Positions 8,105 to 46,351 of a DNA stretch of 64,000 bases are shown piece by piece. Made by a program: the position numbers and the translations under genes. The notes below the pieces were generated by a model. That model saw only the letters and a list, made by a program, of their open reading frames with translations. It did not search any database and was not told the origin of the DNA. Numbering within the stretch: the stretch's first letter is position 1; each line of letters begins with the position of its first letter. Origin of the DNA: Paracoccaceae bacterium (GTDB lineage: Bacteria; Pseudomonadota; Alphaproteobacteria; Rhodobacterales; Rhodobacteraceae); the NCBI GenBank assembly GCA_964291375.2, contig OZ219810.1, positions 54,021 to 118,020 on the forward strand, given 5' to 3'.

Positions 8105-10519
8105 TTATCCCCGACAACACCTAGAACCTGAAGTTGAGGGAGACCCCGACGGTATAGCTGCGCTGATCCCCGGACAGGCCGATGCCATCGGCGGCCCCGA
8201 AGAACTCGGCGCTGAGGCCACCGTCAAGATCATCTGCCCGCCCGCAAAGCCGAGCGTCACCGTCGCATTCAGCCCCGCCAGATTGCCCCCCGAGGCGGTC
8301 ACGTCATACACACGCGAGGCCGTCACCTGACTGACCGACAGCTGTGCCGTCGTGTTGCTCACCGTGAAATCCGCCGCGTTCACATTCTTCACGTCCTCGC
8401 TGAACGTCACCCGCCAGGTCACGCTGTCCGCATTCGTCGGCGAACTCCCCGGCGTCTGATGCACAATCGACGCAACCCCCGGCGCGGTGTTGTCGATCAC
8501 GTAAGCGCTTTCATCCGTCCCCGTCGGCGCGGTGTTGGAAAGGGCGTTGTCGGCAAGATCGGCGATATTCTGCCCGCCCGCAAAGCCGAGCGTCACCGTC
8601 GCATTCAGCCCCGCCAGATTGCCACCCGAGGCGGTCACGTCATACACCCTTGAGGCCGTCACTTCGCTGAAATTCAGCTGTGCCGTCGTGTTGCTCACCG
8701 TGAAATCCGCCGCGTCCACATTCTTCACGTCCTTGCTGAACGTCACCCGCCAGGTCACGCTGTCCGCATTCGTCGGCGAACTCCCCGGCGTCTGATGCAC
8801 GATCGACGCAACACCCGGCGCGCTGGTGTCATAGACGGACGTGGCCTGCGTGGCCGCAGTGCTCGGGTTGCCCGCCGCATCCGTCGCCGCGCTCGCCGCA
8901 ACGTCTATCGTCACCTCGCCCTCCGCCGAGGGCGTGATCTCCGCCGTCCACACCCGACCGGCGGTGACCGGGGTGAAGGACCCGGCCGCGCCGTTGCCGA
9001 CGCTGATGTCGCCAACCACAAAACCCGTCACCGGCTCCGAAAAGCTGAACCGGGCGGTGAAGGCCGACGAACTCCGCGCCGGAACATCCGAAATCGTCAC
9101 CCCCGGCGCGGTGTTGTCGATCACGTAAGCGCTTTCATCCGTCCCCGTCGGCGCGGTGTCGGAAAGGGCGTTGTCGGCAAGATCGGCGATATTCTGCCCG
9201 CCCGCAAAGCCGAGCGTCACCGTCGCATTCAGCCCCGCCAGATTGCCCCCCGAGGCGGTCACGTCATACACCCTTGAGGCCGTCACTTCGCTGAAATTCA
9301 GCTGTGCCGTTGTGCCGCTCACCGTGAAATCCGCCGCGTCCACATTCTTCACGTCCTTGCTGAACGTCACCCGCCAGGTCACGCTGTCCGCATTCGTCGG
9401 CGAACTCCCCGGCGTCTGATGCACGATCGACGCAACACCCGGCGCGCTGGTGTCATAGACGGACGTGGCCTGCGTGGCCGCAGTGCTCGGGTTGCCCGCC
9501 GCATCCGTCGCCGCCGCCGCCGCAACGTCTATCGTCACCTCGCCCTCCGCCGAGGGCGTGATCTCCGCCGTCCACACCTGATCGGCGGTGACCGGGGTGA
9601 AGGATCCGGCCGCGCCGTTGCCGACGCTGATGTCGCCAACCACAAAACCCGTCACCGGCTCCGAAAAGCTGAACCGGGCGGTGAAGGCCGACGAACTGCG
9701 CGCCGGAACATCCGAAATCGTCACCCCCGGCGCGGTGTTGTCGATCACGTAAGCGCTTTCATCCGTCCCCGTCGGCGCGGTGTTGGAAAGGGCGTTGTCG
9801 GCAAGATCGGCGATATTCTGCCCGCCCGCAAAGCCGAGCGTCACCGTCGCATTCAGCCCCGCCAGATTGCCACCCGAGGCGGTCACGTCATACACAAGCG
9901 AGGCCGTCACTTCACTGAAATTCAGCTGTGCCGTTGTGCCGCTCACCGTGAAATCCGCCGCGTCCACATTCTTCACGTCCTTGCTGAACGTCACCCGCCA
10001 GGTCACGCTGTCCGCATTCGTCGGCGAACTCCCCGGCGTCTGATGCACGATCGACGCAACACCCGGCGCGCTGGTGTCATAGACGGACGTGGCCTGCGTG
10101 GCCGCAGTGCTCGGGTTGCCCGCCGCATCCGTCGCCGCCGCCGCCGCAACGTCTATCGTCACCTCGCCCTCCGCCGAGGGCGTGATCTCCGCCGTCCACA
10201 CCTGATCGGCGGTGACCGGGGTGAAGGACCCGGCCGCGCCGTTGCCGACGCTGATGTCGCCAACCACAAAACCCGTCACCGGCTCCGAAAAGCTGAACCG
10301 GGCGGTGAAGGCCGACGAACTGCGCGCCGGAACATCCGAAATCGTCACCCCCGGCGCGGTGTTGTCGATCACGTAAGCGCTTTCATCCGTCCCCGTCGGC
10401 GCGGTGTTGGAAAGGGCGTTGTCGGCAAGATCGGCGATATTCTGCCCGCCCGCAAAGCCGAGCGTCACCGTCGCATTCAGCCCCGCCAGATTGCCACCCG
10501 AGGCGGTCACGTCATACAC
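8105..10519 (-). CDS. giant gene fragment 8 (array end plus out-of-frame tail)
   Basis: Units A17 to A21'. The last 42 codons (MILTVASAPSSSGPPMASACPG...) are nonsense-like. The OMP-like tail sits in another frame, with its stop at 8121-8123. Confidence 0.75.
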   Translation of the reverse strand: MYDVTASGGNLAGLNATVTLGFAGGQNIADLADNALSNTAPTGTDESAYVIDNTAPGVTISDVPARSSSAFTARFSFSEPVTGFVVGDISVGNGAAGSFTPVTADQVWTAEITPSAEGEVTIDVAAAAATDAAGNPSTAATQATSVYDTSAPGVASIVHQTPGSSPTNADSVTWRVTFSKDVKNVDAADFTVSGTTAQLNFSEVTASLVYDVTASGGNLAGLNATVTLGFAGGQNIADLADNALSNTAPTGTDESAYVIDNTAPGVTISDVPARSSSAFTARFSFSEPVTGFVVGDISVGNGAAGSFTPVTADQVWTAEITPSAEGEVTIDVAAAAATDAAGNPSTAATQATSVYDTSAPGVASIVHQTPGSSPTNADSVTWRVTFSKDVKNVDAADFTVSGTTAQLNFSEVTASRVYDVTASGGNLAGLNATVTLGFAGGQNIADLADNALSDTAPTGTDESAYVIDNTAPGVTISDVPARSSSAFTARFSFSEPVTGFVVGDISVGNGAAGSFTPVTAGRVWTAEITPSAEGEVTIDVAASAATDAAGNPSTAATQATSVYDTSAPGVASIVHQTPGSSPTNADSVTWRVTFSKDVKNVDAADFTVSNTTAQLNFSEVTASRVYDVTASGGNLAGLNATVTLGFAGGQNIADLADNALSNTAPTGTDESAYVIDNTAPGVASIVHQTPGSSPTNADSVTWRVTFSEDVKNVNAADFTVSNTTAQLSVSQVTASRVYDVTASGGNLAGLNATVTLGFAGGQMILTVASAPSSSGPPMASACPGISAAIPSGSPSTSGSRCCRG

Positions 10520-12150
10520 CGCGAGGCCGTCACTTCGCTGAAATTCAGCTGTGCCGTTGTGCCGCTCACCGTGAAATCCGCCGCGTCCACATTCTTCACG
10601 TCCTTGCTGAACGTCACCCGCCAGGTCACGCTGTCCGCATTCGTCGGCGAACTCCCCGGCGTCTGATGCACGATCGACGCAATCCCCGGCGCGGTGTTGT
10701 CGATCACGTAAGCGCTTTCATCCGTCCCCGTCGGCGCGGTGTCGGAAAGGGCGTTGTCGGCAAGATCGGCGATATTCTGCCCGCCCGCAAAGCCGAGCGT
10801 CACCGTCGCATTCAGCCCCGCCAGATTGCCCCCCGAGGCGGTCACGTCATACACCCTTGAGGCCGTCACCTGACTGACCGACAGCTGTGCCGTTGTGCCG
10901 CTCACCGTGAAATCCGCCGCGTTCACATTCTTCACGTCCTCGCTGAACGTCACCCGCCAGGTCACGCTGTCCGCATTCGTCGGCGAACTCCCCGGCGTCT
11001 GATGCACAATCGACGCAACACCCGGCGCGGTGTTGTCGATCACGTAAGCGCTTTCATCCGTCCCCGTCGGCGCGGTGTCGGAAAGGGCGTTGTCGGCAAG
11101 ATCGGCGATATTCTGCCCGCCCGCAAAGCCGAGCGTCACCGTCGCATTCAGCCCCGCCAGATTGCCCCCCGAGGCGGTCACGTCATACACCCTTGAGGCC
11201 GTCACTTCGCTGAAATTCAGCTGTGCCGTTGTGCCGCTCACCGTGAAATCCGCCGCGTTCACATTCTTCACGTCCTCGCTGAACGTCACCCGCCAGGTCA
11301 CGCTGTCCGCATTCGTCGGCGAACTCCCCGGCGTCTGATGCACAATCGACGCAACCCCCGGCGCGGTGTTGTCGATCACGTAAGCGCTTTCATCCGTCCC
11401 CGTCGGCGCGGTGTTGGAAAGGGCGTTGTCGGCAAGATCGGCGATATTCTGCCCGCCCGCAAAGCCGAGCGTCACCGTCGCATTCAGCCCCGCCAGATTG
11501 CCCCCCGAGGCGGTCACGTCATACACCCTTGAGGCCGTCACTTCACTGAAATTCAGCTGTGCCGTTGTGCCGCTCACCGTGAAATCCGCCGCGTCCACAT
11601 TCTTCACGTCCTTGCTGAACGTCACCCGCCAGGTCACGCTGTCCGCATTCGTCGGCGAACTCCCCGGCGTCTGATGCACGATCGACGCAACACCCGGCGC
11701 GCTGGTGTCATAGACGGACGTGGCCTGCGTGGCCGCAGTGCTCGGGTTGCCCGCCGCATCCGTCGCCGCCGCCGCCGCAACGTCTATCGTCACCTCGCCC
11801 TCCGCCGAGGGCGTGATCTCCGCCGTCCACACCTGATCGGCGGTGACCGGGGTGAAGGACCCGGCCGCGCCGTTGCCGACGCTGATGTCGCCAACCACAA
11901 AACCCGTCACCGGCTCCGAAAAGCTGAACCGGGCGGTGAAGGCCGACGAACTGCGCGCCGGAACATCCGAAATCGTCACCCCCGGCGCGGTGTTGTCGAT
12001 CACGTAAGCGCTTTCATCCGTCCCCGTCGGCGCGGTGTTGGAAAGGGCGTTGTCGGCAAGATCGGCGATATTCTGCCCGCCCGCAAAGCCGAGCGTCACC
12101 GTCGCATTCAGCCCCGCCAGATTGCCCCCCGAGGCGGTCACGTCATACAC
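10507..12150 (-). CDS. giant gene fragment 7 (array)
   Basis: Made only of A and B cassettes, units A13 to A17. Confidence 0.8.
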   Translation of the reverse strand: MYDVTASGGNLAGLNATVTLGFAGGQNIADLADNALSNTAPTGTDESAYVIDNTAPGVTISDVPARSSSAFTARFSFSEPVTGFVVGDISVGNGAAGSFTPVTADQVWTAEITPSAEGEVTIDVAAAAATDAAGNPSTAATQATSVYDTSAPGVASIVHQTPGSSPTNADSVTWRVTFSKDVKNVDAADFTVSGTTAQLNFSEVTASRVYDVTASGGNLAGLNATVTLGFAGGQNIADLADNALSNTAPTGTDESAYVIDNTAPGVASIVHQTPGSSPTNADSVTWRVTFSEDVKNVNAADFTVSGTTAQLNFSEVTASRVYDVTASGGNLAGLNATVTLGFAGGQNIADLADNALSDTAPTGTDESAYVIDNTAPGVASIVHQTPGSSPTNADSVTWRVTFSEDVKNVNAADFTVSGTTAQLSVSQVTASRVYDVTASGGNLAGLNATVTLGFAGGQNIADLADNALSDTAPTGTDESAYVIDNTAPGIASIVHQTPGSSPTNADSVTWRVTFSKDVKNVDAADFTVSGTTAQLNFSEVTASRCMT

Positions 12151-14356
12151 CCGAGGCCGTCACTTCGCTGAAATTCAGCTGTGCCGTTGTGCCGCTCACC
12201 GTGAAATCCGCCGCGTTCACATTCTTCACGTCCTCGCTGAACGTCACCCGCCAGGTCACGCTGTCCGCATTCGTCGGCGAACTCCCCGGCGTCTGATGCA
12301 CAATCGACGCAACACCCGGCGCGGTGTTGTCGATCACGTAAGCGCTTTCATCCGTCCCCGTCGGCGCGGTGTCGGAAAGGGCGTTGTCGGCAAGATCGGC
12401 GATATTCTGCCCGCCCGCAAAGCCGAGCGTCACCGTCGCATTCAGCCCCGCCAGATTGCCCCCCGAGGCGGTCACGTCATACACCCTTGAGGCCGTCACT
12501 TCGCTGAAATTCAGCTGTGCCGTTGTGCCGCTCACCGTGAAATCCGCCGCGTCCACATTCTTCACGTCCTTGCTGAACGTCACCCGCCAGGTCACGCTGT
12601 CCGCATTCGTCGGCGAACTCCCCGGCGTCTGATGCACGATCGACGCAACACCCGGCGCGCTGGTGTCATAGACGGACGTGGCCTGCGTGGCCGCAGTGCT
12701 CGGGTTGCCCGCCGCATCCGTCGCCGCCGCCGCCGCAACGTCTATCGTCACCTCGCCCTCCGCCGAGGGCGTGATCTCCGCCGTCCACACCTGATCGGCG
12801 GTGACCGGGGTGAAGGACCCGGCCGCGCCGTTGCCGACGCTGATGTCGCCAACCACAAAACCCGTCACCGGCTCCGAAAAGCTGAACCGGGCGGTGAAGG
12901 CCGACGAACTGCGCGCCGGAACATCCGAAATCGTCACCCCCGGCGCGGTGTTGTCGATCACGTAAGCGCTTTCATCCGTCCCCGTCGGCGCGGTGTTGGA
13001 AAGGGCGTTGTCGGCAAGATCGGCGATATTCTGCCCGCCCGCAAAGCCGAGCGTCACCGTCGCATTCAGCCCCGCCAGATTGCCACCCGAGGCGGTCACG
13101 TCATACACACGCGAGGCCGTCACTTCACTGAAATTCAGCTGTGCCGTTGTGCCGCTCACCGTGAAATCCGCCGCGTCCACATTCTTCACGTCCTTGCTGA
13201 ACGTCACCCGCCAGGTCACGCTGTCCGCATTCGTCGGCGAACTCCCCGGCGTCTGATGCACGATCGACGCAACACCCGGCGCGCTGGTGTCATAGACGGA
13301 CGTGGCCTGCGTGGCCGCAGTGCTCGGGTTGCCCGCCGCATCCGTCGCCGCCGCCGCCGCAACGTCTATCGTCACCTCGCCCTCCGCCGAGGGCGTGATC
13401 TCCGCCGTCCACACCTGATCGGCGGTGACCGGGGTGAAGGACCCGGCCGCGCCGTTGCCGACGCTGATGTCGCCAACCACAAAACCCGTCACCGGCTCCG
13501 AAAAGCTGAACCGGGCGGTGAAGGCCGACGAACTGCGCGCCGGAACATCCGAAATCGTCACCCCCGGCGCGGTGTTGTCGATCACGTAAGCGCTTTCATC
13601 CGTCCCCGTCGGCGCGGTGTTGGAAAGGGCGTTGTCGGCAAGATCGGCGATATTCTGCCCGCCCGCAAAGCCGAGCGTCACCGTCGCATTCAGCCCCGCC
13701 AGATTGCCACCCGAGGCGGTCACGTCATACACAAGCGAGGCCGTCACTTCACTGAAATTCAGCTGTGCCGTTGTGCCGCTCACCGTGAAATCCGCCGCGT
13801 CCACATTCTTCACGTCCTTGCTGAACGTCACCCGCCAGGTCACGCTGTCCGCATTCGTCGGCGAACTCCCCGGCGTCTGATGCACGATCGACGCAACACC
13901 CGGCGCGCTGGTGTCATAGACGGACGTGGCCTGCGTGGCCGCAGTGCTCGGGTTGCCCGCCGCATCCGTCGCCGCCGCCGCCGCAACGTCTATCGTCACC
14001 TCGCCCTCCGCCGAGGGCGTGATCTCCGCCGTCCACACCTGATCGGCGGTGACCGGGGTGAAGGACCCGGCCGCGCCGTTGCCGACGCTGATGTCGCCAA
14101 CCACAAAACCCGTCACCGGTTCCGAAAAGCTGAACCGGGCGGTGAAGGCCGACGAACTGCGCGCCGGAACATCCGAAATCGTCACCCCCGGCGCGGTGTT
14201 GTCGATCACGTAAGCGCTTTCATCCGTCCCCGTCGGCGCGGTGTTGGAAAGGGCGTTGTCGGCAAGATCGGCGATATTCTGCCCGCCCGCAAAGCCGAGC
14301 GTCACCGTCGCATTCAGCCCCGCCAGATTGCCCCCCGAGGCGGTCACGTCATACAC
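12143..14356 (-). CDS. giant gene fragment 6 (array)
   Basis: Made only of A and B cassettes, units A9 to A13. Confidence 0.8.
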   Translation of the reverse strand: MYDVTASGGNLAGLNATVTLGFAGGQNIADLADNALSNTAPTGTDESAYVIDNTAPGVTISDVPARSSSAFTARFSFSEPVTGFVVGDISVGNGAAGSFTPVTADQVWTAEITPSAEGEVTIDVAAAAATDAAGNPSTAATQATSVYDTSAPGVASIVHQTPGSSPTNADSVTWRVTFSKDVKNVDAADFTVSGTTAQLNFSEVTASLVYDVTASGGNLAGLNATVTLGFAGGQNIADLADNALSNTAPTGTDESAYVIDNTAPGVTISDVPARSSSAFTARFSFSEPVTGFVVGDISVGNGAAGSFTPVTADQVWTAEITPSAEGEVTIDVAAAAATDAAGNPSTAATQATSVYDTSAPGVASIVHQTPGSSPTNADSVTWRVTFSKDVKNVDAADFTVSGTTAQLNFSEVTASRVYDVTASGGNLAGLNATVTLGFAGGQNIADLADNALSNTAPTGTDESAYVIDNTAPGVTISDVPARSSSAFTARFSFSEPVTGFVVGDISVGNGAAGSFTPVTADQVWTAEITPSAEGEVTIDVAAAAATDAAGNPSTAATQATSVYDTSAPGVASIVHQTPGSSPTNADSVTWRVTFSKDVKNVDAADFTVSGTTAQLNFSEVTASRVYDVTASGGNLAGLNATVTLGFAGGQNIADLADNALSDTAPTGTDESAYVIDNTAPGVASIVHQTPGSSPTNADSVTWRVTFSEDVKNVNAADFTVSGTTAQLNFSEVTASGV

Positions 14357-23192: not shown

Positions 23193-23211
23193 CTGTATCG
23201 TGCCTGCGGGA

Positions 23212-32200: not shown

Positions 32201-35200
32201 GATTTGCCGGCGGGCAGGCTGCTGTCCGCCACGGCCTCGCTGTTGCCGCTGTTGTTGTCATCCACGGTGACGGTCACATCATACCGGTTGTCCCCGTCCG
32301 CATCAGTCGGGTTCGAGTGGTCCGGCGCGGTTTTGAAAAACAGGCCGCGCACCTTTTCGTCCTCGTCACAGTCGTCGGTATCGGGGCAGATGCGGCCAAA
32401 TTCAAACAGGCCGGCGTCCGGGCCGGTCAGGGTCCAGGTCCAGTCGTCTTCGTCTTCATGGCCAGTGGTGGTGGGGGTGACGGCGCGGTTGCCCTCGGTG
32501 ATAATCGGGGCTCCCTGGCAGCGTAAGGGTGCCTGCGGCCCGCTGCACAGGGATACGGGCCGGGGCACCCAGAGGCGGACATCCGCGGAGTCGATGATGA
32601 CGGCATCTGCTCCGTCGGGTTTGTAATACCCTCTGACGCTGACCTTGTAGTATGCGCCGTTGAAATCGTCATAGTCGTCTGCAAGGGATACATCTACATT
32701 GCTGTTGCCACTGCCACCGTCGGACGTGAAGGCGATCTGCGTCTGCCCGCCCGGGTCAGGAAAGTCCGTGTTGTATGTGTGGAAGGTGGTGCGGTCATCG
32801 CTTCTGAAAACGACTTGATAGTCGGTGATGTTGGCGGGCTTGTTTGTCCACTCGAATGCGGTGGTGACACTCCATTCCGGGGTCAGTTTGGTGTCGTCAA
32901 AGACCCAGGAGAAATCGGCATCGGTGACGGTCAGGACGACGCCGGTGCCGTCCACATTGTGGCCGGTGAATGGCCCGAACCGGGCGTGGGTCAGGGCGGC
33001 GGCGTTGTTGTTTTCGTCCCGCACGGTGCCGGTCAGGCTGTTGGCGGGCACGGCTATGCCGTTGATGTCTTTGTCGGTGTCGGCGACGGTGTAGGTGAAG
33101 ACCAGTGTGCTGCCGGTGCTGGCAGTGGCGTCATGGGCGAGGGTTTTGGTGCTGCTGCCAAGGGTGAAGGCCAGCATCGGCGGGCTGGTGGCGTCGGCGG
33201 TGACCGGTTGGTCAAAGGTGACCCTGAAGGTGATTTCGTCACCCAGTTCATAGATGTCGTCCGGGCCGGGGTCGGATGTGACCTCGATGCCGGTGATTTC
33301 GGGCGGGTTGGTGTCGGCGGTCAGGGTGAGCGGGAGCGTTGCCGGGTTGCCCGCGCCATGCTCGGTGAAGACCGCGTTGGCCGGGAGTTGGAGCGTTATC
33401 GTGCCTTCAAAGTCGCTGTCCGGCAGGATGCTGAACGTATAGGTCTGCGGGTCGCCGGGGGCGGGCCGGGCGAGGCTTTGCGCGGTGCCGTTGGTGACGG
33501 CGAGGTCGTCGGCGGTCAGGTGGCTGCCCGGCGGGAAGTCGCCCTGCGCGTCGAGCACATCGGCGCTGAAGGTTATGGTGGCGTCGAACGCGCCGGTGAT
33601 CGGTTGGGTGGCGGTGGTGGTGAGCGGCGTGACGGTCAGGGCATCGGACGGGGTGGTCGTGGCCCGGAATTGGGCGCGGTCATTGCCGTGGTCGAGGGCA
33701 TCGGCGGGGAGCGTCACCCGGACGGTTTCGCCGCCTGATCTGGTGGCGCGGGCGATCACGCAGAAGGTGGTGGGAGCGTCGGGGATACAGTCCGCCCCCG
33801 GCGGGATGACCCGCTCGACCACGCTGTTGACGGCAGAGAAGTCAGAGATGTCCAGCCCGGTGACCACCCAGTCGAATTCGAGGCTGAGGCGGAAGGGCCA
33901 GCGGGTGACGGTGGCGGCGTCGGTCTCCCACGGTTGGAGCAGGCGGGTGAGGGTGACGGCGGTGCGGGCAACGTCAAGGGACGCGATGGTGAAGGCCGCC
34001 GCCGGATTGCCTGCCGCATCGCGGACCGGTTTTGCGCCGGGGGTGTAGACGAGCGCGGCGGTATCCCCGGCGACAAGCACCACGGGCAGGGTCAGCAGCA
34101 CCGTCTGCCCGGTGACAGCGACGCTTTGGACCGGTTGTGCGGTGCCGCTGTTGACCGTCACCATGAACGCGCCCGGTGCCGGGATGATGGCTTCGTTAAG
34201 CGCTTCGTTGTAGGTGATGGTCAGCAGGTTGCCCCGCGCGGTGACGCTTTGGCGGACCGGCGCGGTGGTGTCCGTTGATGTCGGCGTCGCCTGCGCTGGT
34301 GCCGATCCCGGGCCGGGGCCGACGGCGTTCACCGCCCGGACCTCAAATTCATAAGCGGTGCCGTTGGTGAGGTTGGTCACCGTGTGGGTGGTGGTGTCCG
34401 AACCGGTCGGTGCCCAGTCCTGCCATGTGCCCGTGGAGGGCGGCGTGCGGTGCCGGACCTCATAGCCGGTGATGTCGGAATAGCCGACATCCTGCGGCGC
34501 GGTCCATGACAGGGTTGCCTGACCGGCCCCCGCCACCGCTGACAGGCCGGTCGGGGCCGCCGGAATGAACAGGCTTTCGACCTGTAGCGCATTCGATGGT
34601 GGCACAGTGAGCCCGAGGCCGCTGTATGACGCACTAAGTTGGATAGTGTATTGGCCTTGGCGCAGATCACTAGCCTCAACATCGAAATAGCCCTCAGTTG
34701 CCTCTGCCGCGCTGACGCCGGGATTGAGGCTAAGCGTTCGTGCTGGCACCAGCGAAGAAATGAGCGTATAAAACTGAATATCCGCGGCGTTCGAGGGCTG
34801 GTTCCAGGTGAGGGTGAATCTCACCTTGCGAACCCCATTGTCGCTGAAGGTGCTTGATGGCGTCACCGTCAGCAGTTCCGGGGGCCTCAGCGTTACCTGG
34901 CGCGCCGCGTCGCTGGTCCGTGCCTCTTCACTGCCCCCGACATCGGTGAAGATCACCCGCACCTTGATCCGTTTGCCAAGATCGTCGTCCTGAAGCGTGT
35001 AAGCCGGGCCGGTCGCGCCCTCAATGTCGGTCTCGTCCCCGCTATCAACCCGTATCCACTGCCAACGGAAAGCCGCGTCATCGGTCGGCAGCCCGTCAGC
35101 GTCGGCAATATCGCCCCTGCCCGCCGTCAGCTCCTCGCCCACAACCAGCTTGCCGTCCAAAAGCGGCACCGCTGGCAGAGAGATCACCGGCTTACCCGTC

Positions 35201-38200
35201 GCCAATGTGTTCGCGCCGACAGTGAATGTGAACTCATCCGTGGCCGTGCCGCCCTTGAGGTCATCCGCCGTCAGCCTCAGCGCAAGCGTGCCCTCGTCCC
35301 CCGCCTGCGGGGTGCCGGTGAAGCTGCGCGATGCCCCGTCAAAGCTGAGCCAGGCGGGCAATGCGCCGTCGCCCGACAGCGTGACCGTATAGGTCAGGCT
35401 GTCCCCGTCCGGGTCGATGAACGTGTTGGCCGGTATCTGATAGCTGAGCGCGTTGCCCACTATCACCGCCCGGTCCGGGACTTCGTTCTCCAGCACCGGG
35501 ACGCGGTTCGACTGAAGCAGAGCAACCGTCACCTTGTCGCCGACATTGGCAGAGGTCCAGTCGATGATAGTTGGTGACCAGGCGAATATGTTCTGTCTCA
35601 GGGTCGCATCGGCGAGGCTGTATGTGGTGTCCCCGATCTGCAAAACCCAGGTGCTGGCAAATGACACATCTGTGTTCGGGGTCAGTGACAGCCAGAACTG
35701 GTTAAGCGTCTCTGAATCCAAGAGCTGGCTGACCCGGAAATCGTTTCCGTCATGTCTGAAAGCGTCGGAAGAAAGTGTGCCGTATCCGCCCGACAGTGAG
35801 CGTCCTATCGTGGTCCCGTCCGCCCCGATCGTCAGGCAGGCATTCCAGACGGCATCTGCGGCGAGCGCCGGGTTCGGGCAGGCAGGCGAGACGTTCATCA
35901 CGACCTGACCGCTCAGCGCCGCCGCATTGTTTGTGGACAGATCCCGGATCGGCGCAGGGGTCGCCCCTGTTGTCGGCACGGTATAGGTCAGCGTCACCGC
36001 CTGCCCGCCGCTCACCGCCTCCGCCAGAAGGAGTCCGACCTGCGACGTGTCCCCGCCGATGCTCACATTACTTACCGACGGCCCCGTGCTCCCGCCGACC
36101 GTCACCGTGAATGCGTCCGTGCCCGGCACAGACCCCGTATCGAGCGGCTCGTCATAGGTCAGCATCACAACCTTGCCGTTCACCCGCGCCGATTGCAGAA
36201 CCGGCCCGGTGGTATCCGACGCCTGAACCGTCAGCGTGAAGTCATCGCTGGCAGTGCCGCCATTGCCGTCATCCGCCGTCACCTGCACCGAAAGCGCGCC
36301 CGCATTGGCCGCCAAGGGAGTGCCGGAAAAGACGCGCGTCGCCCCGTCAAAGGTCAGCCATGCAGGCAACGCGCTGCCGTCCTCCAGCGCCGCCGTATAG
36401 GTCAGGGTATGCCCGTCCGCATCGCTGAACGTGTTCGCCGGTATCCGGTAGCTGAGCGCGGTGCCCACAGTCACCGTCCGATCCGGGATTGCGTTTGCCA
36501 CCACCGGGGCGCGGTTCTTCTGCAACAGGGCAACCGTCACCTTGTCGCCGACATCGCCGGATGACCAGCCAAAGCCGACGGGCGACGACCACACATAGGA
36601 CACTCCGTCGGCACCTGCCTGCGCGGTGCTCAGGTCAAAGCTGCTTGCGCCAAGCTGCAATGTCCAGCCTTCCGCCACCGTGCCCGGCGCAGCGGCGAAC
36701 CGAAGCGATAAACCGCCCGTGCTTTCATAGGTGATGGCGCTGATGGTGTGGGCGTTTCCGTCGTGGCTGAACGAAGGGGTGGACAGAACGCCGTAATTGT
36801 CCGCCGCATTGTATCCGAACGACCCGCTCTGTTCGGCCACTGTCAGACAGACGCGCCAGAACGGATTGCCCGGCAGGCTCGGGTCCGGGCAGGCGCGCGT
36901 TGAGTTGCGAACCTCTGTCCCGTCAAGCGCCACCGCCGGGTTTCCGTTCAAATCCCGGATCGGCGCAGGGGTCGCCCCTGTCGGCACGGTATAGCTCAGT
37001 GCCACCGCCTGCCCGGCGCTCACCGGCGAGATCAGGGTCAGGATGACCGCCTCGCCATCGACCTGCACAGCCGATACCGCACGGTTCGCAGCCGCAGCCC
37101 CCACTGCCACCGTGAACGCCCCCGCATCCGGGACCGAAGTCGTGTCCAGCGCTTCGTCATAGATCACCGTCAGCGTATTGCCATCCGCCACCGCCTCGAC
37201 CAGCACCGGGGCCACACCATCGCTAATCGTCAGGGTGAAGTCATCGCTGGCAGTGCCGTCACCCCGGCCATCATCCGCCGTCACCGTTATTATCAACGCG
37301 CCTGCATCGCCGTTCCCCGGCGTGCCGGTGAAGGTCGAGGTCGCCTCATCGAAGGTAAGCCATGCGGGCAGATCATCGCCGTTTGACAGCGCCGCGGTGT
37401 AGGTCAGGGGGTTGTTGTCCGGATCATCGAACGCATCTTCGGGGATGAGAAAGCTGAACAAGCTGCCCACCGCCGCCGTCTGGTCCGGAATCCCGTTACC
37501 CACCACCGGGGCGCGGTTCACGTTCCGCAGGCTGACCGGAAAGATTTCGCCAAGATTGTCACTGTCCCAGGAAAGGCCGGACCATGAATAAGTTACATCG
37601 CCATCCCCGCTCTTCATCGCTTCTTTGAGAGGGAAGGACCGCTCGCCGACCTGCAATGTCCAGCCGTCTGCGACCGCACCCGGGGCTGGGTCGAATGTAA
37701 TATCAAATTCAGATTGATAGGACAGGCCATCGACTTCGTATGTGACGCTATTGAAGTCGAAATCCTTGTCGGAGAGGTCGCCGAAATCTGCTGCAGACAA
37801 TCCGAAGCCAAAGTAGCCGAACCGGTCCGAAGCCTGAGTTGATTCCCCCACCGTCAGGCAGGCGTTCCAGAAGGCTTCCGCAGGCTGGCCGTCAGAGCAA
37901 CCGGGGGTGGTGTTGGTCACGCTCCGGGCGGGAAACGCACTTGCATCGGTGCCGGTCGTGTCCTGAATCGGGTTCGTGCCGGGCACCGTATAGGCGACCG
38001 TGACGGCCTCGCCTGATGCCACCGGCTCCCCCAGCATCAGGACAACATCCGTGCCACTGATCTGCACCTCAAAATCCGTGGTGTCCGTGCCGCCCACCAT
38101 CACCGTGAACGCGGTCTTGTCCGGCACAGACCCGGTATCCAGCGCCTCATTATAGCTCAGCACCAGCCTTGTGCCGTTGACCGTCGCCTCAACCGGCGTC

Positions 38201-39612
38201 GTCGCACCGGCCACCGTTATGATCGCGATATTCCCTCCTGCTTTGATCTCATAGGACAGATTACTCGCAACCACCACCCGGATGGTGGCGGCCGGTTCGA
38301 GCACACCATCGTCAACCGTCGGAATATCCAACTGCTTTTCGGTTTCACCGTCGGCAAAGCTGACGGTGAGCGAAAATGAAGGGCCGCCGCTGACCACATC
38401 CGCGCCTGACACAGTGACAATAACCGCCACAACCAAAGGCCCGAGGTCATCGGTGCGGGTGATGGTGAAAGAGGCGGTCTCGCCCTCCACAATCTCGCTG
38501 TCCGGCGCGGATACAGACACCTCTGACTTCACATTCATCGTCAGCGTGTCGTCGCCCGTAACCGTATAATCCGACGACGGCGCAAGTGAATAGACACCCC
38601 CGTGGTCTCTGGCATTCACCGCGGCGATTGACAGGCCACCCGTTTCGCTGTCCGGCGCAACGGTGCCGGTCGCAACCACCACCGCCTGCGTTTCCCCCAC
38701 GGGCACACGCCGAAGCTCGAAATCCACATCATATTCACGGGGCGAGAAACGCGCGAGCACCTCCGCAGGCCGCCCGTTGACCACCTCAAGCGTCGGCGCA
38801 TCAACCAACCGGGCTGTCAGCGGGTCATTGTCGCTGACCACCACCGAGGCCGCATCACCCGGCGCGGGGGGAACATGAATGGCATCGTTGGCATCGGAAT
38901 CGACCAGCCGCAGCGTGATGGTTTCGTCGCGTTCGCTGATACTGTCATCCTCGGTCGCCAGATCCAGCGTCGCCGTGTAGGAATTGGCGTCGAAAGTGAC
39001 GCTGCTCGGCGCGGTGCCGCTCAGCACCGTCGCATCCGGCACTGTGACCGAAACCGGCATCACAAGCTGGGTCTGATCCGAAGAGCGGGTGAGCCGGAAC
39101 CGGGCGGGCGCGCCTTCGGCTATATCGCCCAGGGCCTCGACAAAAACCAGCGTCACCCCCGTGCTCACCTTGTGGCCGTTGTCATCGCCGAGGCCGGTAA
39201 AGGTCAGCACGGCGTCGTTCCGGCTTTCGTCCTGAATGCTGCCGCCCGCCAGCGCCAGACCGTTATTCGGGACACTGATCCCGTTGGAGTCGTTGTCTCC
39301 GGCCACGGTCACATAGCGGAAGGTCAGTGCGTCGCCGTCACCGTTGCTGCTGACATAGGTTGCCTGCCGCGTCAGAGGGCCGATCAGCAGGTCAAGCGTC
39401 GGCGCGCCTGTCACCCTCACCGGCTCGCTGAACATCACCGTGACTTCGATGTTCTCTCCGGTTCCGTAGGTGGTGGTGCCGCTGGCAGGGCTGGACGTGA
39501 TCGATGCACCGCTCACCGTCGGGGCCGTCACGTCATCGTTTTCTGTCACCGTCACCGTCGCGAGGGTATCGTTCGCGGTGAGACCGGAATAGGCAGGCGC
39601 AGATGCCACCAC
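23212..39612 (-). CDS. giant gene fragment 2 (5466 codons)
   Basis: Contains Calx-beta (e.g. DITVDYTVTGDTATAGDDFT...DDTDHEPDETLTVTL) and SwmB-type repeats (LTLTYDEALD..SVP....FTVT...VTLTL...V.V.YT). It also has He_PIG/CADG domains (NRAPVV..IPDQT...LTYTA.L..G.ALPAWLSFD....F.GTP), 2 FN3 domains, a cadherin-like domain and 7 Cys-FW-Cys modules. The listed M is an internal GTG. Confidence 0.85.
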   Translation of the reverse strand: MVASAPAYSGLTANDTLATVTVTENDDVTAPTVSGASITSSPASGTTTYGTGENIEVTVMFSEPVRVTGAPTLDLLIGPLTRQATYVSSNGDGDALTFRYVTVAGDNDSNGISVPNNGLALAGGSIQDESRNDAVLTFTGLGDDNGHKVSTGVTLVFVEALGDIAEGAPARFRLTRSSDQTQLVMPVSVTVPDATVLSGTAPSSVTFDANSYTATLDLATEDDSISERDETITLRLVDSDANDAIHVPPAPGDAASVVVSDNDPLTARLVDAPTLEVVNGRPAEVLARFSPREYDVDFELRRVPVGETQAVVVATGTVAPDSETGGLSIAAVNARDHGGVYSLAPSSDYTVTGDDTLTMNVKSEVSVSAPDSEIVEGETASFTITRTDDLGPLVVAVIVTVSGADVVSGGPSFSLTVSFADGETEKQLDIPTVDDGVLEPAATIRVVVASNLSYEIKAGGNIAIITVAGATTPVEATVNGTRLVLSYNEALDTGSVPDKTAFTVMVGGTDTTDFEVQISGTDVVLMLGEPVASGEAVTVAYTVPGTNPIQDTTGTDASAFPARSVTNTTPGCSDGQPAEAFWNACLTVGESTQASDRFGYFGFGLSAADFGDLSDKDFDFNSVTYEVDGLSYQSEFDITFDPAPGAVADGWTLQVGERSFPLKEAMKSGDGDVTYSWSGLSWDSDNLGEIFPVSLRNVNRAPVVGNGIPDQTAAVGSLFSFLIPEDAFDDPDNNPLTYTAALSNGDDLPAWLTFDEATSTFTGTPGNGDAGALIITVTADDGRGDGTASDDFTLTISDGVAPVLVEAVADGNTLTVIYDEALDTTSVPDAGAFTVAVGAAAANRAVSAVQVDGEAVILTLISPVSAGQAVALSYTVPTGATPAPIRDLNGNPAVALDGTEVRNSTRACPDPSLPGNPFWRVCLTVAEQSGSFGYNAADNYGVLSTPSFSHDGNAHTISAITYESTGGLSLRFAAAPGTVAEGWTLQLGASSFDLSTAQAGADGVSYVWSSPVGFGWSSGDVGDKVTVALLQKNRAPVVANAIPDRTVTVGTALSYRIPANTFSDADGHTLTYTAALEDGSALPAWLTFDGATRVFSGTPLAANAGALSVQVTADDGNGGTASDDFTLTVQASDTTGPVLQSARVNGKVVMLTYDEPLDTGSVPGTDAFTVTVGGSTGPSVSNVSIGGDTSQVGLLLAEAVSGGQAVTLTYTVPTTGATPAPIRDLSTNNAAALSGQVVMNVSPACPNPALAADAVWNACLTIGADGTTIGRSLSGGYGTLSSDAFRHDGNDFRVSQLLDSETLNQFWLSLTPNTDVSFASTWVLQIGDTTYSLADATLRQNIFAWSPTIIDWTSANVGDKVTVALLQSNRVPVLENEVPDRAVIVGNALSYQIPANTFIDPDGDSLTYTVTLSGDGALPAWLSFDGASRSFTGTPQAGDEGTLALRLTADDLKGGTATDEFTFTVGANTLATGKPVISLPAVPLLDGKLVVGEELTAGRGDIADADGLPTDDAAFRWQWIRVDSGDETDIEGATGPAYTLQDDDLGKRIKVRVIFTDVGGSEEARTSDAARQVTLRPPELLTVTPSSTFSDNGVRKVRFTLTWNQPSNAADIQFYTLISSLVPARTLSLNPGVSAAEATEGYFDVEASDLRQGQYTIQLSASYSGLGLTVPPSNALQVESLFIPAAPTGLSAVAGAGQATLSWTAPQDVGYSDITGYEVRHRTPPSTGTWQDWAPTGSDTTTHTVTNLTNGTAYEFEVRAVNAVGPGPGSAPAQATPTSTDTTAPVRQSVTARGNLLTITYNEALNEAIIPAPGAFMVTVNSGTAQPVQSVAVTGQTVLLTLPVVLVAGDTAALVYTPGAKPVRDAAGNPAAAFTIASLDVARTAVTLTRLLQPWETDAATVTRWPFRLSLEFDWVVTGLDISDFSAVNSVVERVIPPGADCIPDAPTTFCVIARATRSGGETVRVTLPADALDHGNDRAQFRATTTPSDALTVTPLTTTATQPITGAFDATITFSADVLDAQGDFPPGSHLTADDLAVTNGTAQSLARPAPGDPQTYTFSILPDSDFEGTITLQLPANAVFTEHGAGNPATLPLTLTADTNPPEITGIEVTSDPGPDDIYELGDEITFRVTFDQPVTADATSPPMLAFTLGSSTKTLAHDATASTGSTLVFTYTVADTDKDINGIAVPANSLTGTVRDENNNAAALTHARFGPFTGHNVDGTGVVLTVTDADFSWVFDDTKLTPEWSVTTAFEWTNKPANITDYQVVFRSDDRTTFHTYNTDFPDPGGQTQIAFTSDGGSGNSNVDVSLADDYDDFNGAYYKVSVRGYYKPDGADAVIIDSADVRLWVPRPVSLCSGPQAPLRCQGAPIITEGNRAVTPTTTGHEDEDDWTWTLTGPDAGLFEFGRICPDTDDCDEDEKVRGLFFKTAPDHSNPTDADGDNRYDVTVTVDDNNSGNSEAVADSSLPAGKSSRTYGIAVQPDLTPPELQSAAVNHSTLTLTYDRDLDSTSVPDKSAFTMSKRHIRVSAVSISGMVVTLTLDIPIERRDGIRVSYTRPTGAGAMPLRSVTGGEVASFTNQSVTNNTPSFLCPSQRHPGTFWSGCMKIVSCLNNPDCEDFEPISQPTFAWGGYIDNPGDNDVGALVDANGNDASTFTRHGKTHKITAIGGDGNCISIRFADDPGEAALDWIMEFNEGIEYTSVRLGAALKTIACPSAFPASDHVFYFRNGDGLAWGRSQVLSRAFTLRPPPVELVTAIPDLNAEVEQGFTYTIPADSIIESSGDPLTFTALQSDDSALPAWLSFDPAARSFSGRPERDDIDEIEITVKAANASGDSASSTFMLTITDTTVPVLSTTSPPVVRYDEITLTFSEALESLSVFEGLATEMFPVVVGSESVDVAEAHSHGAVVTLRLAKPVPYGQTVAVSYVVPDRGIHARLLDLQGLPVLAFSPLSVANNTPQCSTSGHPANAFWRACAEVGSDPGGVFGFYRSSVENIGFLVPRSFTFGGAEYSFSRILNFDNGGDDGYIVRIGIKPELTAAQVAGWMLRLGGTDLSFDNATRRGPAQAGDGVQFEWTNTGSIWGASDVGNVQKLSLRRKPILLEEIPDQSAEALEAFSFTVPDGTFSNPDSAAPTYAATLEAGGALPGWLAFDPATRVFSGTPGFADIGVVSVKVTATGRAGDTAEDIFAITVADTTLPVLVTDPPPVVRGLREVVMTWSEPLDATAVPAVGAFTVQVNDVTRTVASVAVSEAVVTLVLEGLVLEGQAVTVTYATPALATDARLQDVAGNAAAGFTAPQNVANTFVLPDVCPASDAALPEGVFWQSCVLVGEIASGISYGARGTKGAILGAGFEYGGVSNSVDELSVISGFGLRLSFTSDPRPVVNGWFLEVAGQSLELDNSTWRAGNHYRWSSPGFTWGSDDVGDWVVVSLRQGNRAPVVVSELPDQVVTVGVDALDYAVPEGAFNDPDDGDSLTYTAALEDDSALPAWLSFDGTTFTGAPAADYDGALELQVKVTAADGEGGMVADVFTLTVNRPPVVTNVVELPKASVGVGFFHNFPADMFTDPDGDSLTYTVTLADDSELPSSWLIYAPNDPGVGGLVSPNPPAEAEGEWMIKLTANDGRGGSASHTFTLVIGPANPATGTVTITGDAQVGQTLTASSGTIMDADGFTDTDNDGFPDDLTWQWIRVDGDSGDETPIEGATATTYTLQDADYGTTIKVQISFTDLASNVETLVSNPVGPVDFKPPKLATPTLSDSYQDDGTHIFRYDFTWEQPSHTSDIVSYVVADSESGGAPAAITIDSGTALADATAGYIEFSDPPGAGSTFSMTVYYDAGRTLSATSNEVTVANLFPPEPPIILLNDPDVRGALLSWNPPGFNGNSAITRYEVRHRTPPETGTWTEWTSTVSAPQLVNLHEVTGLTAGATYEFQLRAVNAVGNGRETETVQITPTLPAVSFDSGVASVEEGNALNFRVDLTGRADEDTADITVDYTVTGDTATAGDDFTAGGGTLVFKASDEDDFKTITISTTDDTDHEPDETLTVTLSNPVNAILGHGPATATGTIEDNDNDVTGPVLQSAAVNNKTLTLVYNEALNANSKPDVTAFTVKINGTEIGDDDDSVSSVSDVSISGTEVTLTILGNTISGERVTVSYDDDDSTNKLRDTSNNAADGFTDETVINTSPSCPAAPSAKVFWDACLTIGGSGLAFGFESRNTPMFGKLLPVATFSVGSDTYEIINLSTDILTNSNTANLYLRFNSDPGAAIRNGWALEVGGETYDFEDSTDGFNTIPSFRVWSDGGRLDWGRDNARDRVPVALLYKNPPPVVAADIPAQSVVAGNTFSFDLPTGTFSDPLNDPLTYTASVDGTALTDPATGIWLAFDGTTFSGIPPQSAAGEITVTVKADDGPGRTDGEDGRSVETSFILTVDDETVPVLASASVNRERLTLTYSEPLDMDSVPPADAFTVTVDGNTVRVSDVTISGSTVDMTLFPAVLRGQRVRLVYTPQTGPPEDDMIRDVWMNNAAGLTKQEVANATPLTDTAPPLLDAIVLSEDGAVLTLTYDEALDEGSVPAAGDFTVTAGGASVAGVAVSGMTVVLTLDPVVIHAQEVTVGYTAPGTDPIRDAAMNPVADVTTTTVPNPVPPPVASITGGTASEELPVEFTVTLSAASAKRVTLGYSTSDGTAVAPDDYTAADSTVTLEPLATEGAISIATVQDAVTEGEETFTVTLKSPVNATLDPSPTATTATGTITDFDNVLPVLQSAKIIGGTLTLTYNEALNGASVPVPGDFAVTAGDAGATVSGVSVSGMTVVLTLTPPPANGLRVRLAYTRGDNPIEDLAGNDADDLSGQAVTDGDTPVLQSAALNGDTLTLTYDEALNERSVPVTGDFTVTADGTGVTVSGVSVSGMTVVLALTSGTVVTNGVPVVLTYTAGTNPIEDLTGSDAANLTAQAVLDRSVPVLQSAVGNGKTLTLTYDEALNEASVPGAGDFTVTADGTGVTVSGAEVSGAEVRLTLATSLLLSHQAVVLTYTGGTNPIEDVAGNDAANLSGQSVRNDTQKIPLTIKFVEFDNVFRTRREYRAIESSGDPVTVTLAIVDADGDRVALSGDVTLRMGTSDYAGNYILGLNHPATAGQDYTAVDTTVTISQGATSATFDVPVLDDDTVERFEYFGFTMAWEGPAPVFGDYDVSLETLTPETQPLGRVTSDDTATVSLAETSYEVTEGDTLDLVPNFSKAIEFDFDLNLSFSQPTGFQLGSDQFISTYASFPANNKIRYSKTYSGGVTAGAQAPIQVLAADDNVVEGPHSFRVLVGRNPGINSFFTFSDALQNDETLITILDNDVAELELGVLPGIIVEAGGVSTVRVGVTNGVTFRRNQQVTLSLAGSTATEGADYTIGTKTLTLRAGEPPADETSVAAETTVTAVADSIDDNGEKIIITATPWRYDAGCGQYHPEDDHHRQRGCKYRADRLADDQRQC
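26675..27075 (-). other. Cys-FW-Cys module 7
   Basis: SCPAAPSAKVFWDACLTIGG ... WALEVGGETYDF ... RVWSDGGRLDWGRDNARDRVPVALL. Confidence 0.5.
29321..29691 (-). other. Cys-FW-Cys module 6
   Basis: VCPASDAALPEGVFWQSCVLVG ... WFLEVAGQSLEL ... YRWSSPGFTWGSDDVGDWVVVSL. Confidence 0.5.
30330..30738 (-). other. Cys-FW-Cys module 5
   Basis: QCSTSGHPANAFWRACAEVG ... WMLRLGGTDLSF ... FEWTNTGSIWGASDVGNVQKLSL. Confidence 0.5.
31375..31845 (-). other. Cys-FW-Cys module 4 (long, cysteine-rich variant)
   Basis: LCPSQRHPGTFWSGCMKIVSCLNNPDCEDFE ... GNCISIRF ... TIACPSAF ... AFTLRPP. Confidence 0.5.
35512..35890 (-). other. Cys-FW-Cys module 3
   Basis: ACPNPALAADAVWNACLTIG ... WVLQIGDTTYSL ... FAWSPTIIDWTSANVGDKVTVALL. 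Confidence 0.5.
36520..36891 (-). other. Cys-FW-Cys module 2
   Basis: ACPDPSLPGNPFWRVCLTVA ... WTLQLGASSFDL ... YVWSSPVGFGWSSGDVGDKVTVALL. Confidence 0.5.
37525..37899 (-). other. Cys-FW-Cys module 1 (unassigned domain of about 125 aa)
   Basis: PGCSDGQPAEAFWNACLTVG ... WTLQVGERSFPL ... YSWSGLSWDSDNLGEIFPVSL. Boundaries approximate. Confidence 0.5.
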
Positions 39613-40121
39613 CAGATCAACCGTCCGTTTCCCCGGTCAGCATCATCATCGGCAACCGTGAGGTCAAAGCTGAGCACGGACGGAGTTTCGGTGGTGCAGG
39701 TGGCTGCCGAATCGCCAGTCAGCTCGAAATAGAGGGTGTCTTCGTCGCTGTTCACCGCCGTGCCGCGTCTGATTCTCGGGCGCGTCGCCGGTTGTTCACC
39801 GATGTCGAGGTCAATCCCGTCGCCAAGATCATCGAAACGCACCGCGATTGTCGTGTCCTGATTGGCACGGGCAGAGACTATGAACTCCCCTGTTTCGCCT
39901 TCGGCGACTTCGGTCGGGGGATCAAAAAGGCTGAAAGTGGCGCAGGCGGCATTCTGCGCCCATGCGGTGCCACCACCCGGCAGAGCAGCCAGAACAACCG
40001 CGGCCAGACCCGCCCGCCACAATGTGCGCAGGGGATGTGCGGTGCGGCCCATGTCAGCAGCCGCACGCCATGTCAGCAGCCGCATGTTTCGGAAAAACCG
40101 AACAAGGCCTGATGGGCGCAC
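39552..40121 (-). CDS. giant gene fragment 1: signal peptide plus first Calx-beta-like segment
   Basis: Candidate starts are GTG 40121 (GGGAG 6 nt upstream), ATG 40085 and ATG 40052. MGRTAHPLRTLWRAGLAAVVLAALPGGGTAWA-QN is signal-peptide-like. The frame is lost near 39631. Confidence 0.75.
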   Translation of the reverse strand: MRPSGLVRFFRNMRLLTWRAAADMGRTAHPLRTLWRAGLAAVVLAALPGGGTAWAQNAACATFSLFDPPTEVAEGETGEFIVSARANQDTTIAVRFDDLGDGIDLDIGEQPATRPRIRRGTAVNSDEDTLYFELTGDSAATCTTETPSVLSFDLTVADDDADRGNGRLIWWWHLRLPIPVSPRTIPSRR

Positions 40122-40125
40122 CGGA

Positions 40126-40171
40126 GGCTCCCGGCTCCCGGCTCCCGGCTCCCGGCTCCCGGCTCCCGGCT
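40126..40171 (-). repeat. heptanucleotide SSR, GGCTCCC x 6.6 (coding strand GGGAGCC)
   Basis: Direct read: ggctccc repeated at 40126, 40133, 40140, 40147, 40154 and 40161, plus a partial ggct at 40168-40171. Confidence 0.95.
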
Positions 40172-40172: not shown

Positions 40173-40181
40173 ATTATAGCA
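40173..40181 (-). promoter_or_regulatory. candidate extended -10 promoter element TGCTATAAT for the giant gene
   Basis: The reverse complement of 40173-40181 (attatagca) is TGCTATAAT, a perfect TGnTATAAT. The only TTGACA lies 26 nt upstream, too far for a canonical -35. Confidence 0.4.
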
Positions 40182-40221: not shown

Positions 40222-40490
40222 TCTTTTCTGCCGCCGGATGCAACCATAACGTGGAGTTGTAGCTTATTTTTGGCTAAAGCAGCCAAACTAACCCGCCACA
40301 ATGTGCGAATCAGATTCTGGTCAAAAAGTCCTATACCGGAAATTTTTTCCGGCAATTCAACGACACTCCTCATCAGCTCAACCCTTTCGCGCCTGACCCT
40401 ACCCTGAACCGCTGGCTTGCTTGGTTTTAATATAGATGTAAAAACTTTGAACAAGCAAGAAATTTTAAGGCCTGTTTGAACTTTTTGTGA

Positions 40491-46189: not shown

Positions 46190-46351
46190 AAAAGACCTCT
46201 GCATGATGTCCGGGTCCGGCAGAGATATGGGCGACGGGTTTCACAAGAATGGTGAGGGCAGCGCCCGCCGTGGGGCGGGGCGGGCGCTGCCCGGCGCAAG
46301 CGCCGGGCGGGATGGGTTGGGTGCCGACGCACCAATATGTCAGAGGTCTTT
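46190..46351. repeat. MITE/REP-like element, full copy
   Basis: Terminal inverted repeats AAAAGACCTCTGCATGAT and ATATGTCAGAGGTCTTT. The interior is about 85-90% identical by eye to the inverted copy at 55924-56103. Confidence 0.7.
46256..46292. terminator. 14-bp GC stem inside the repeat element, between convergent aroQ and hutU
   Basis: GGGCAGCGCCCGCC (46256-46269) pairs with GGCGGGCGCTGCCC (46279-46292), with a 9-nt loop. Confidence 0.35.

Follow-up and report, generated by a model that had tools for sequence, protein, structure and literature searches.

The largest type Va (classical) autotransporter described is BigE, a protein of 10,429 aa with a passenger consisting of beta-strand repeats (Celik et al. 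2012, PMC3419190). A gene of this size class, divided over eight reading frames, was analysed here in a stretch of 64,000 nucleotides (the whole of which is hereafter termed the window) from contig OZ219810.1 of the Paracoccaceae bacterium assembly GCA_964291375.2. With BigE and other type Va proteins, the giant gene, as deduced for its intact form, has in common an N-terminal Sec signal peptide, a huge repetitive passenger, a linker and a C-terminal PF03797 barrel ending in ..NFRF, as well as a length of ~11,000 aa and the lack of dedicated secretion partner genes. It differs from them in that its passenger is composed of ~95 discrete beta-sandwich modules instead of a beta-helix or BrkA-like repeats, while the window copy retains only 36 barrel residues and its barrel is common to paralogues with different passengers (SRCR, cadherin-like).

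Discrete beta-sandwich arrays are otherwise typical of two other systems. The inverse autotransporters (type Ve, e.g., intimin and invasin) likewise display a bacterial Ig-like array via an outer-membrane barrel of the same polypeptide, yet their barrel belongs to another family and is N-terminal, with a C-terminal passenger, whereas that of the giant gene is C-terminal and of the PF03797 family. The adhesins LapA, SiiE and MpIBP share giant, repetitive, calcium-binding Ig-like/Calx-beta fibres for surface attachment, and a preliminary description of this DNA had placed the gene in their class. These proteins are, however, type I secretion system (T1SS) substrates that lack a Sec signal peptide and possess C-terminal repeats-in-toxin (RTX) sequences, a T1SS signal and adjacent ABC transporter, membrane fusion protein (MFP) and TolC genes, none of which is found in the giant gene, while the latter has a Sec signal peptide and a PF03797 remnant; the comparison is therefore withdrawn. 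SwmB of marine Synechococcus, a cyanobacterial cell-surface motility protein and the source of the Pfam SWM_repeat, resembles the giant gene product in this repeat (17 stretches here) and in its size of >10,000 aa; it is not known to carry an autotransporter barrel. What is unusual at the present locus is thus the combination of an all-beta-sandwich passenger with a barrel common to modular paralogues, while its size already has a precedent in BigE.

The comparisons presented below make it probable that the locus represents one gene, i.e., the remnant of a giant type Va adhesin of a marine, sponge-associated member of the Rhodobacteraceae that has lost most of its translocator by deletion and is probably recently dead.

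One gene in eight reading frames

Eight collinear open reading frames (ORFs) are located on the minus strand of the window, at 39552-40121, 23212-39612, 17967-23192, 15983-18175, 14344-16005, 12143-14356, 10507-12150 and 8105-10519. A mechanical ORF list reproduced exactly the coordinates reported in the preliminary description, and the spacing reported there (overlaps of 8-209 nt or a distance of 19 nt) was likewise confirmed, with overlaps of 61, 209, 23, 13, 8 and 13 nt and a single 19-nt gap. The summed length of the ORFs is 10,767 aa, while conceptual translation across the seven junctions (J1 to J7, Table 1), using the obvious switch point at each, yields 10,656 codons without an internal stop, in agreement with the earlier estimate of ~10,600. 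The GC content at the third codon position (GC3) switches with the frame at every junction, and this applies to all fragments, indicating that each is coding in its own frame. Furthermore, the internal ORF 'starts' are, as previously proposed, GTG codons that lie within domains and lack a Shine-Dalgarno (SD) sequence, and the overlaps and points of contact between the ORFs likewise fall within domains. As had been suggested, the eight ORFs are pieces of one ~32-kb giant surface-protein gene and not eight genes, a conclusion that is substantiated by the stop-free joined frame, the GC3 phase and the relatives that read through the junctions. The additional proposal that each junction falls within a recognizable domain holds for J2 (Calx-beta) and for J4 to J7 (Ig-like unit), but not for J1 and J3, the domains of which are not modelled by Pfam, yet homologues read across both. 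The neighbours of the giant gene are fdhA, located upstream on the same strand, and the convergent serA.

Pfam searches assigned SWM_repeat (17 matched stretches), He_PIG (8), Calx-beta, fn3, Big_9 and Big_5 domains to the 5' two thirds of the gene and Big_12 domains to the 3' third, and the passenger comprises ~95 Ig-like, Calx-beta, SWM, He_PIG and fn3 domains in all. Four units of the tandem array, and no others, depart from a length divisible by three (325, 338, 334 and 335 nt); they correspond to J4 to J7. The first ~208 columns of the 20 long array units are almost invariant, with the exception of two short variable patches; the intact alleles at the second of these read TCAAGGGTG (allele X) and TCGCGTGTG or TCGCTTGTG (allele Y). 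A Cys-containing module of ~150 aa (C..G.P...FW.ACL.VG...) was also observed to recur in the passenger, at window positions ~37,100-37,600 and ~18,900-19,350 (corrected residues ~700-850 and ~6,880-7,010); it returned no Pfam match, and the same module is carried by the N-termini of P0290 and P0294.

Among the eight fragments, a Sec-type signal peptide is present at the 5' end only (MGRTAHPLRTLWRAGLAAVVLAALPGGGTAWA/QNA), where a basic n-region, an 11-residue hydrophobic core and an AXA site can be read by eye from the sequence. The deposited form of the first ORF begins at 40085, and the N-terminus MGRTAHP resembles the MGRVAHP of paralogues P0292 and P0293; the N-termini of these two proteins and of paralogues P0295 and P0289 are comparable to the signal peptide region of the giant gene. 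The 300 nt upstream of the gene are AT-rich and contain TGCTATAAT, yet a promoter consensus scan of this upstream region found nothing exceeding shuffled sequences and did not flag TGCTATAAT, which lacks a -35 hexamer. The earlier observation that the first ORF alone carries a signal peptide and a promoter-like region consequently stands for the signal peptide, while its promoter component is weak.

Table 1. Coordinates of the giant gene's features within the window, listed from the 5' to the 3' end of the gene
Feature	Position	Strand	Description	Basis
Extended -10-like box	40173..40181	-	TGCTATAAT, in AT-rich intergenic region upstream of the gene	Read from sequence
Heptanucleotide repeat	40126..40171	-	Perfect (CCGGGAG)n, 6.6 copies, 100% match; between -10-like box and start codon	TRF
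Gene start and signal peptide	39957..40085	-	Sec-type, ending AWA/QNA; ATG 40085, alternative ATG 40052	Sequence
Non-array passenger	17951..39956	-	~7,300 codons; SWM_repeat, He_PIG, fn3, Calx-beta, Big_9/Big_5, A9-like Ig and unmodelled modules	Pfam and corrected translation
J1	39631..39634	-	G4 run, base missing relative to G5 in relative; frame shifts at codon 154	Alignment with L001
J2	23325	-	One extra C (ACT-C-CAT) in last strand of Calx-beta domain (IIITAT/HGDTT...ITIVNE)	Sequence and Pfam
J3	18071	-	One extra G (GTG-G-ACG) in A9-like Ig domain (GDAFVGV/TLTARAGDMADADGL)	Sequence
Tandem array	8234..17950	-	~29 units (336-nt Ig-like, 288-nt Big_12), 95 to 100% identical within each type	
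J4	16009..16015	-	Net -11 nt, CGCTGGC in place of GCACAGCTGAATTTCAGC; variable patch 1	Unit alignment
J5	14357..14361	-	+2 nt, patch 2; allele X prefix TCAAG and allele Y suffix CGTGTG	Unit alignment
J6	12151..12154	-	-2 nt, patch 2; reciprocal chimera, allele Y prefix TCG and allele X suffix GGTG	Unit alignment
J7	10520..10521	-	-1 nt, patch 2; GCGT allele (Y) without its T	Unit alignment
J8, deletion junction	8233..8234	-	Array unit (..GGGCAG) joined out of frame to the barrel's ..(T)ATGATCTTGAC	Comparison with barrels and P0301
Barrel remnant	8121..8231	-	Last 36 codons and stop (DLDGGLSAEFFGAADGIGLSGDQRSYTVGVSLNFRF*), in a frame not entered by the array	C-termini of eight proteins (83 to 92%) and P0301 (100%)
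Out-of-frame read-through of array into remnant	8105..8233	-	MILTVASAPSSSGPP...CCRG*, end of the last ORF as called	Sequence

The barrel remnant and the probable 3' deletion

The last array unit ends in ..TVTLGFAGGQ, beyond which the array frame continues as Cys/Pro/Ser-rich nonsense to the stop at 8105. An alternative frame reads DDLDGGLSAEFFGAADGIGLSGDQRSYTVGVSLNFRF* and resembles an outer-membrane beta-signal in its alternating hydrophobic residues and its final Phe. In an exhaustive HMMER search, this 37-aa tail matched eight proteins (416 to 2,754 aa) with 83 to 92% identity over their last 36 residues only, and in seven of the eight a PF03797 domain directly precedes the matched region (E 1e-18 to 1e-21). 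A ninth match (P0287), which headed the search, was discarded as a low-complexity artefact, while a Pfam scan of a 45-aa tail alone returned no match and pairwise BLAST against three barrels was not significant. The barrels of this family are mutually 80 to 92% identical, and its passengers include SWM_repeat, Calx-beta, fn3, Big_9 and cadherin-like domains and also SRCR.

The intact counterpart of the 3' end is represented by P0301, a protein of 3,016 aa encoded on a 2.5-Mb contig of a close relative, which was retrieved by a cluster look-up with the last fragment of the window. P0301 crosses 13 consecutive array boundaries in one frame and then runs through three more passenger domains and the linker into a complete PF03797 barrel (E 1.3e-20); its C-terminal 36 residues are identical to the tail in the window. 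Compared at the protein level with P0301, the window lacks 626 codons (~1.9 kb). The beta-signal ..YTVGVSLNFRF* is kept in P0301 and in all eight family members, while the array frame of the window bypasses the remnant. DNA homology to an intact barrel (L085) starts exactly at window position 8233; no more than 1 nt of microhomology connects it with the array side, and the join is out of frame. This eighth break, the junction of the ~1.9-kb deletion at 8233/8234, had been missed when seven breaks were reported within the gene and none in its flanks; the flanks are clean as stated. The sequence is compatible with two courses of events, namely a fusion in frame that subsequently lost one A and, as the simpler of the two, a direct join out of frame at 1 nt of microhomology.

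Since homology at the junction does not exceed 1 nt, the deletion is unlike a product of consensus calling or overlap assembly, and we hold with fairly high confidence, as judged from these sequence comparisons, that the loss of the translocator is real and that the copy would then be non-functional. The JGI contig L083, which originates from a metagenome of the sponge Theonella swinhoei (IMG 3300003175; PMC7848895), confirms serA and the tail without gaps up to position 8217 and ends 16 nt before the junction. Such an end, which runs into neither array nor barrel, would fit a branch point between deleted and intact variants mixed in the sample.

In terms of secretion class, the gene is predicted to be a type Va autotransporter, of which the window copy would be a remnant and not a functional member. 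The N-terminal Sec signal peptide is present, as is the beta-signal for recognition by the barrel assembly machinery (BAM), although the latter lies outside the array frame. The complete 12-stranded PF03797 barrel and its alpha-helical linker are not in the window, which contains the last 36 codons only and no other barrel. Pfam searches returned no HemolysinCabind/RTX match in any fragment of the giant gene, no two-partner secretion (TPS)/Haemagg_act match at its N-terminus, and neither T1SS genes nor a TpsB-like gene (POTRA plus barrel) in the window. The reported lack of a T1SS or TPS partner gene in the window is therefore correct; the export route, which had been called unexplained on these grounds, finds an explanation in the Sec signal peptide and the PF03797 remnant at the 3' end, which together with the lack of RTX, TPS, T1SS and TpsB features point to a self-exporting type Va protein for which no partner gene is expected.

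The intact protein would exceed 11,000 residues and would be directed to the periplasm by Sec via its N-terminal signal peptide, upon which BAM would insert the C-terminal 12-stranded barrel (beta-signal ..SLNFRF) in the outer membrane. After being threaded outwards, the passenger would be displayed on the cell as a fibre with ~95 beta-sandwich domains in tandem, for which a length of several hundred nanometres may be presumed, with adhesion to host or matrix as its presumed role. In the window copy, the ~1.9-kb deletion would have taken the last passenger domains, the linker and all of the barrel but 36 codons, with an out-of-frame join, and as a consequence of the barrel loss the product would no longer be anchored or exported.

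Frame breaks and alternative explanations

The disruptions are judged against intact orthologous segments, i.e., the ENA metagenome contig L001 at J1 and P0301 for the array and the 3' end. L001, which carries an exact FdhA match, has five G residues at J1 and reads through this position, its first product being 2,441 aa long. At the sites equivalent to J2 and J3, the homologues P0288 and P0295 read ETIIISATHDGAALGSVTITIIDDD and GTPMVGETLTAGLGDIADADGL, respectively, and both junctions are single-base insertions outside homopolymers and repeats. The breaks are private to each assembly, and three relatives break the gene at positions of their own: L001 at the equivalent of window position 32786, where it has an extra T and the window is intact, P0165 after VTWRVTFSE and P0300 after ARSSSA. 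As regards constraint, a ratio of nonsynonymous to synonymous substitution rates (dN/dS) of 0.45 between the window and L001 (2,272 shared codons), in conjunction with the lack of nonsense codons, is indicative of recent constraint on the gene.

Several observations weigh against a recently dead gene as the complete explanation. The lesions, the deletion included, are read from the assembly, and the independent contig L083 ends before it reaches the deletion junction. The repeat has only two variable patches, and all four array indels lie in or beside them, three resembling half-applied allele conversions or chimeras; patch 2 (4 to 6 nt) makes up ~1.2% of the array, and the probability that three of four random indels fall within it is ~7e-6. 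Part of the apparent decay may accordingly be absent from the genome and represent an artefact of polishing or over-correction in patches where alleles were mixed. No nonsense codon occurs in the 10,656 codons, which is unexpected if eight real indels had built up neutrally. Furthermore, L001 is frameshifted in the housekeeping gene aroQ and in the giant gene (positions 7641 and 20650, respectively), and the related contig L082 in another housekeeping gene, which is EF-G-like (position 5443), while the window is intact at all three sites, indicating that data of this kind make such errors; the single-base frameshifts in L001 and L082 are likely to be assembly errors in those records.

These points are shared by the principal alternative, according to which the gene is intact and functional and all eight breaks, including the 1.9-kb deletion, are artefacts of long-read metagenome assembly that arose from homopolymers, from the mixing of alleles or strains, and from a chimeric read across the array. 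In its favour are also the homopolymer length difference at J1, the three allele chimeras in the array, the different private break sites of the three close-relative assemblies and the dN/dS value. It is further favoured by the polymorphism of the gene: L001 shares 99.3% identity with the window across 13 kb of flanking sequence and 98% across the initial 8 kb of the gene, and strain differences are more frequent in the giant gene than around it (2% versus 0.6%), as would promote mixed read pile-ups. However, the window flanks contain no broken gene in ~32 kb (relatives were aligned base by base over ~20 kb, and 53 to 62 kb was checked for Pfam profile coverage), so that base-level quality is good; overlap assembly does not create joins between non-homologous sequences that share no more than 1 nt of microhomology; and the insertions at J2 and J3 are not of the homopolymer or repeat type. 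We therefore regard a fully intact gene as unlikely. In the same context, flank homopolymer frameshifts were considered as a sign of poor assembly and rejected, the aroQ gene of the window being intact and a G6/G7 difference lying upstream of the hutI start.

A pseudogene in which the deletion and all seven indels are genomic, the array indels stemming from mis-repaired heteroduplex during gene conversion between alleles, appears more doubtful still. The restriction of the lesions to the giant gene and the loss of the translocator agree with it, as does a lineage that carries insertion sequence (IS) elements and another truncated autotransporter (P0288, on L085), and two-loop heteroduplex repair could in principle yield the reciprocal +2/-2 chimeras of J5 and J6. 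Three indels in a single 4 to 6-nt patch are nevertheless what mixed-allele consensus calling gives, no nonsense mutation accompanies the eight indels, and P0301 reads 13 such boundaries cleanly.

Bypass of the breaks by programmed ribosomal frameshifting or transcriptional slippage, or separate expression of the fragments, can be dismissed as highly improbable: J1 formally presents an in-phase X_XXY_YYZ heptamer (G_GGA_AAC) at which a -1 shift is needed, but this candidate was rejected as no stimulatory structure lies downstream (z +0.45) and the relative has one more G, while J2 and J3 would need +1 shifts at non-slippery sites and J4 to J7 shifts of -11, +2, -2 and -1, and the internal starts, positioned as described above, argue against separate genes.

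A giant autotransporter remnant with a genuine 3' deletion thus remains the preferred reading, with the smaller breaks of mixed origin. The four array breaks are more likely consensus artefacts from mixing reads of two repeat alleles, while J1 to J3 probably reflect early real decay or residual errors. The choice between consensus errors and fresh decay had thus been framed rightly, but its either/or form does not hold, as the 3' deletion argues for inactivation while the array breaks carry the signature of an artefact. The fragmentation itself is ordinary, i.e., a probable pseudogene combined with assembly noise.

Strain variation, relatives and flanking sequences

The giant gene is flanked by fdhA, fdhB, the hut operon, serA and serC. 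No GTDB species representative has an FdhA more than 83% identical to the one in the window, the matches all coming from Rhodobacteraceae, and among 80 Rhodobacteraceae fdhA loci none has a relative of the giant gene, or serA, downstream. The central 1,751 aa had no match in a scan of the species-representative genomes of GTDB, which, together with the fdhA loci, suggests that the giant gene is lineage-specific at this site. JGI metagenome scans with the J2 and J3 segments and with a barrel profile were equally negative, and an orthologue search with the N-terminal 655 aa returned no close match, although it apparently covered only proteins of less than ~1.7 times the query length, to which giant orthologues would be invisible.

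Exact SerC matches led to three further contigs. L082 is 99.5% identical to the window until 21 nt past the serA stop (window position 8028, L082 position 12861), after which thiE-like, IalB and PBP1 genes follow. The L082 strain accordingly possesses neither the giant gene nor the fdh/hut region at this position, and the giant gene appears to be located at a strain-level rearrangement or indel breakpoint. L001 becomes unalignable below window position ~32,500. Between 32000 and 34000, inside the uninterrupted 5,466-aa ORF, the GC skew flips to +0.19 and the AT skew to -0.17; the coincidence of this flip with the end of L001 alignability suggests that the central part of the passenger contains a cassette that varies between strains.

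The heptanucleotide repeat upstream of the start codon is present in six full copies in the window and in 12 in L001 (positions 13229-13312, by regular expression), which is 42 nt longer there. Among the sequences compared, the CCGGGAG repeat is confined to this locus, and each unit holds an SD-like GGGAG; it may represent a contingency or expression-tuning element.

On this basis, it is tentatively proposed, as a possibility still short of an even chance, that sponge-associated Rhodobacteraceae carry a modular type Va family in which one highly conserved cassette of barrel and linker is joined to interchangeable, all-beta-sandwich and partly eukaryote-like passengers, and that the giant gene is its largest member (>11,000 aa) and a strain-variable contingency locus. 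The passengers of such a family would comprise SWM, Calx-beta, cadherin-like, fn3 and SRCR domains, and the giant gene product, when intact, would be at least as large as any autotransporter described. Co-existing strains would differ in whether the locus is present, absent or decaying, with cassette-like variation in mid-passenger and the six versus 12 heptamer copies as further differences, and the promoter-proximal heptamer might switch or tune expression.

An autotransporter of >11,000 residues with a passenger made up wholly of Ig-like and Calx-beta domains would stand at the size limit of type V secretion, and its all-beta-sandwich passenger would contradict the view of type Va passengers as essentially beta-helical. 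A shared barrel with swapped eukaryote-like passengers, with presence, absence and decay among the strains of one sponge, would point to host-interaction genes under rapid turnover. The public annotation splits the gene into at least eight anonymous 'proteins', a record that is corrected by the single-autotransporter reading, and the case illustrates how giant repeat genes are shredded in long-read metagenome assemblies; the intact orthologue on the 2.5-Mb contig of the relative is the copy worth studying.

Three further observations concern repeated sequences in the window. The 15-mer GCACATTGTGGCGGG occurs twice on the strand of the gene, at 40013-40027 in the signal-peptide coding region and at 40292-40306 in the intergenic region 280 nt upstream; two matches were reached in none of 100 shuffles, and the duplication may be a relic of a 5'-end duplication. 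An IS5-family element at 57375-58160, comprising a DUF4096 ORF and a DDE ORF, is 95% identical to the copy that adjoins the truncated autotransporter P0288 in L085. Finally, intergenic repeats at 51717-51904, 55921-56043 and 46260-46352 (53 to 120 nt, 80 to 100% identical) are common to the window and L085, and look like repetitive extragenic palindromic (REP) or miniature inverted-repeat transposable element (MITE)-like elements of the lineage.

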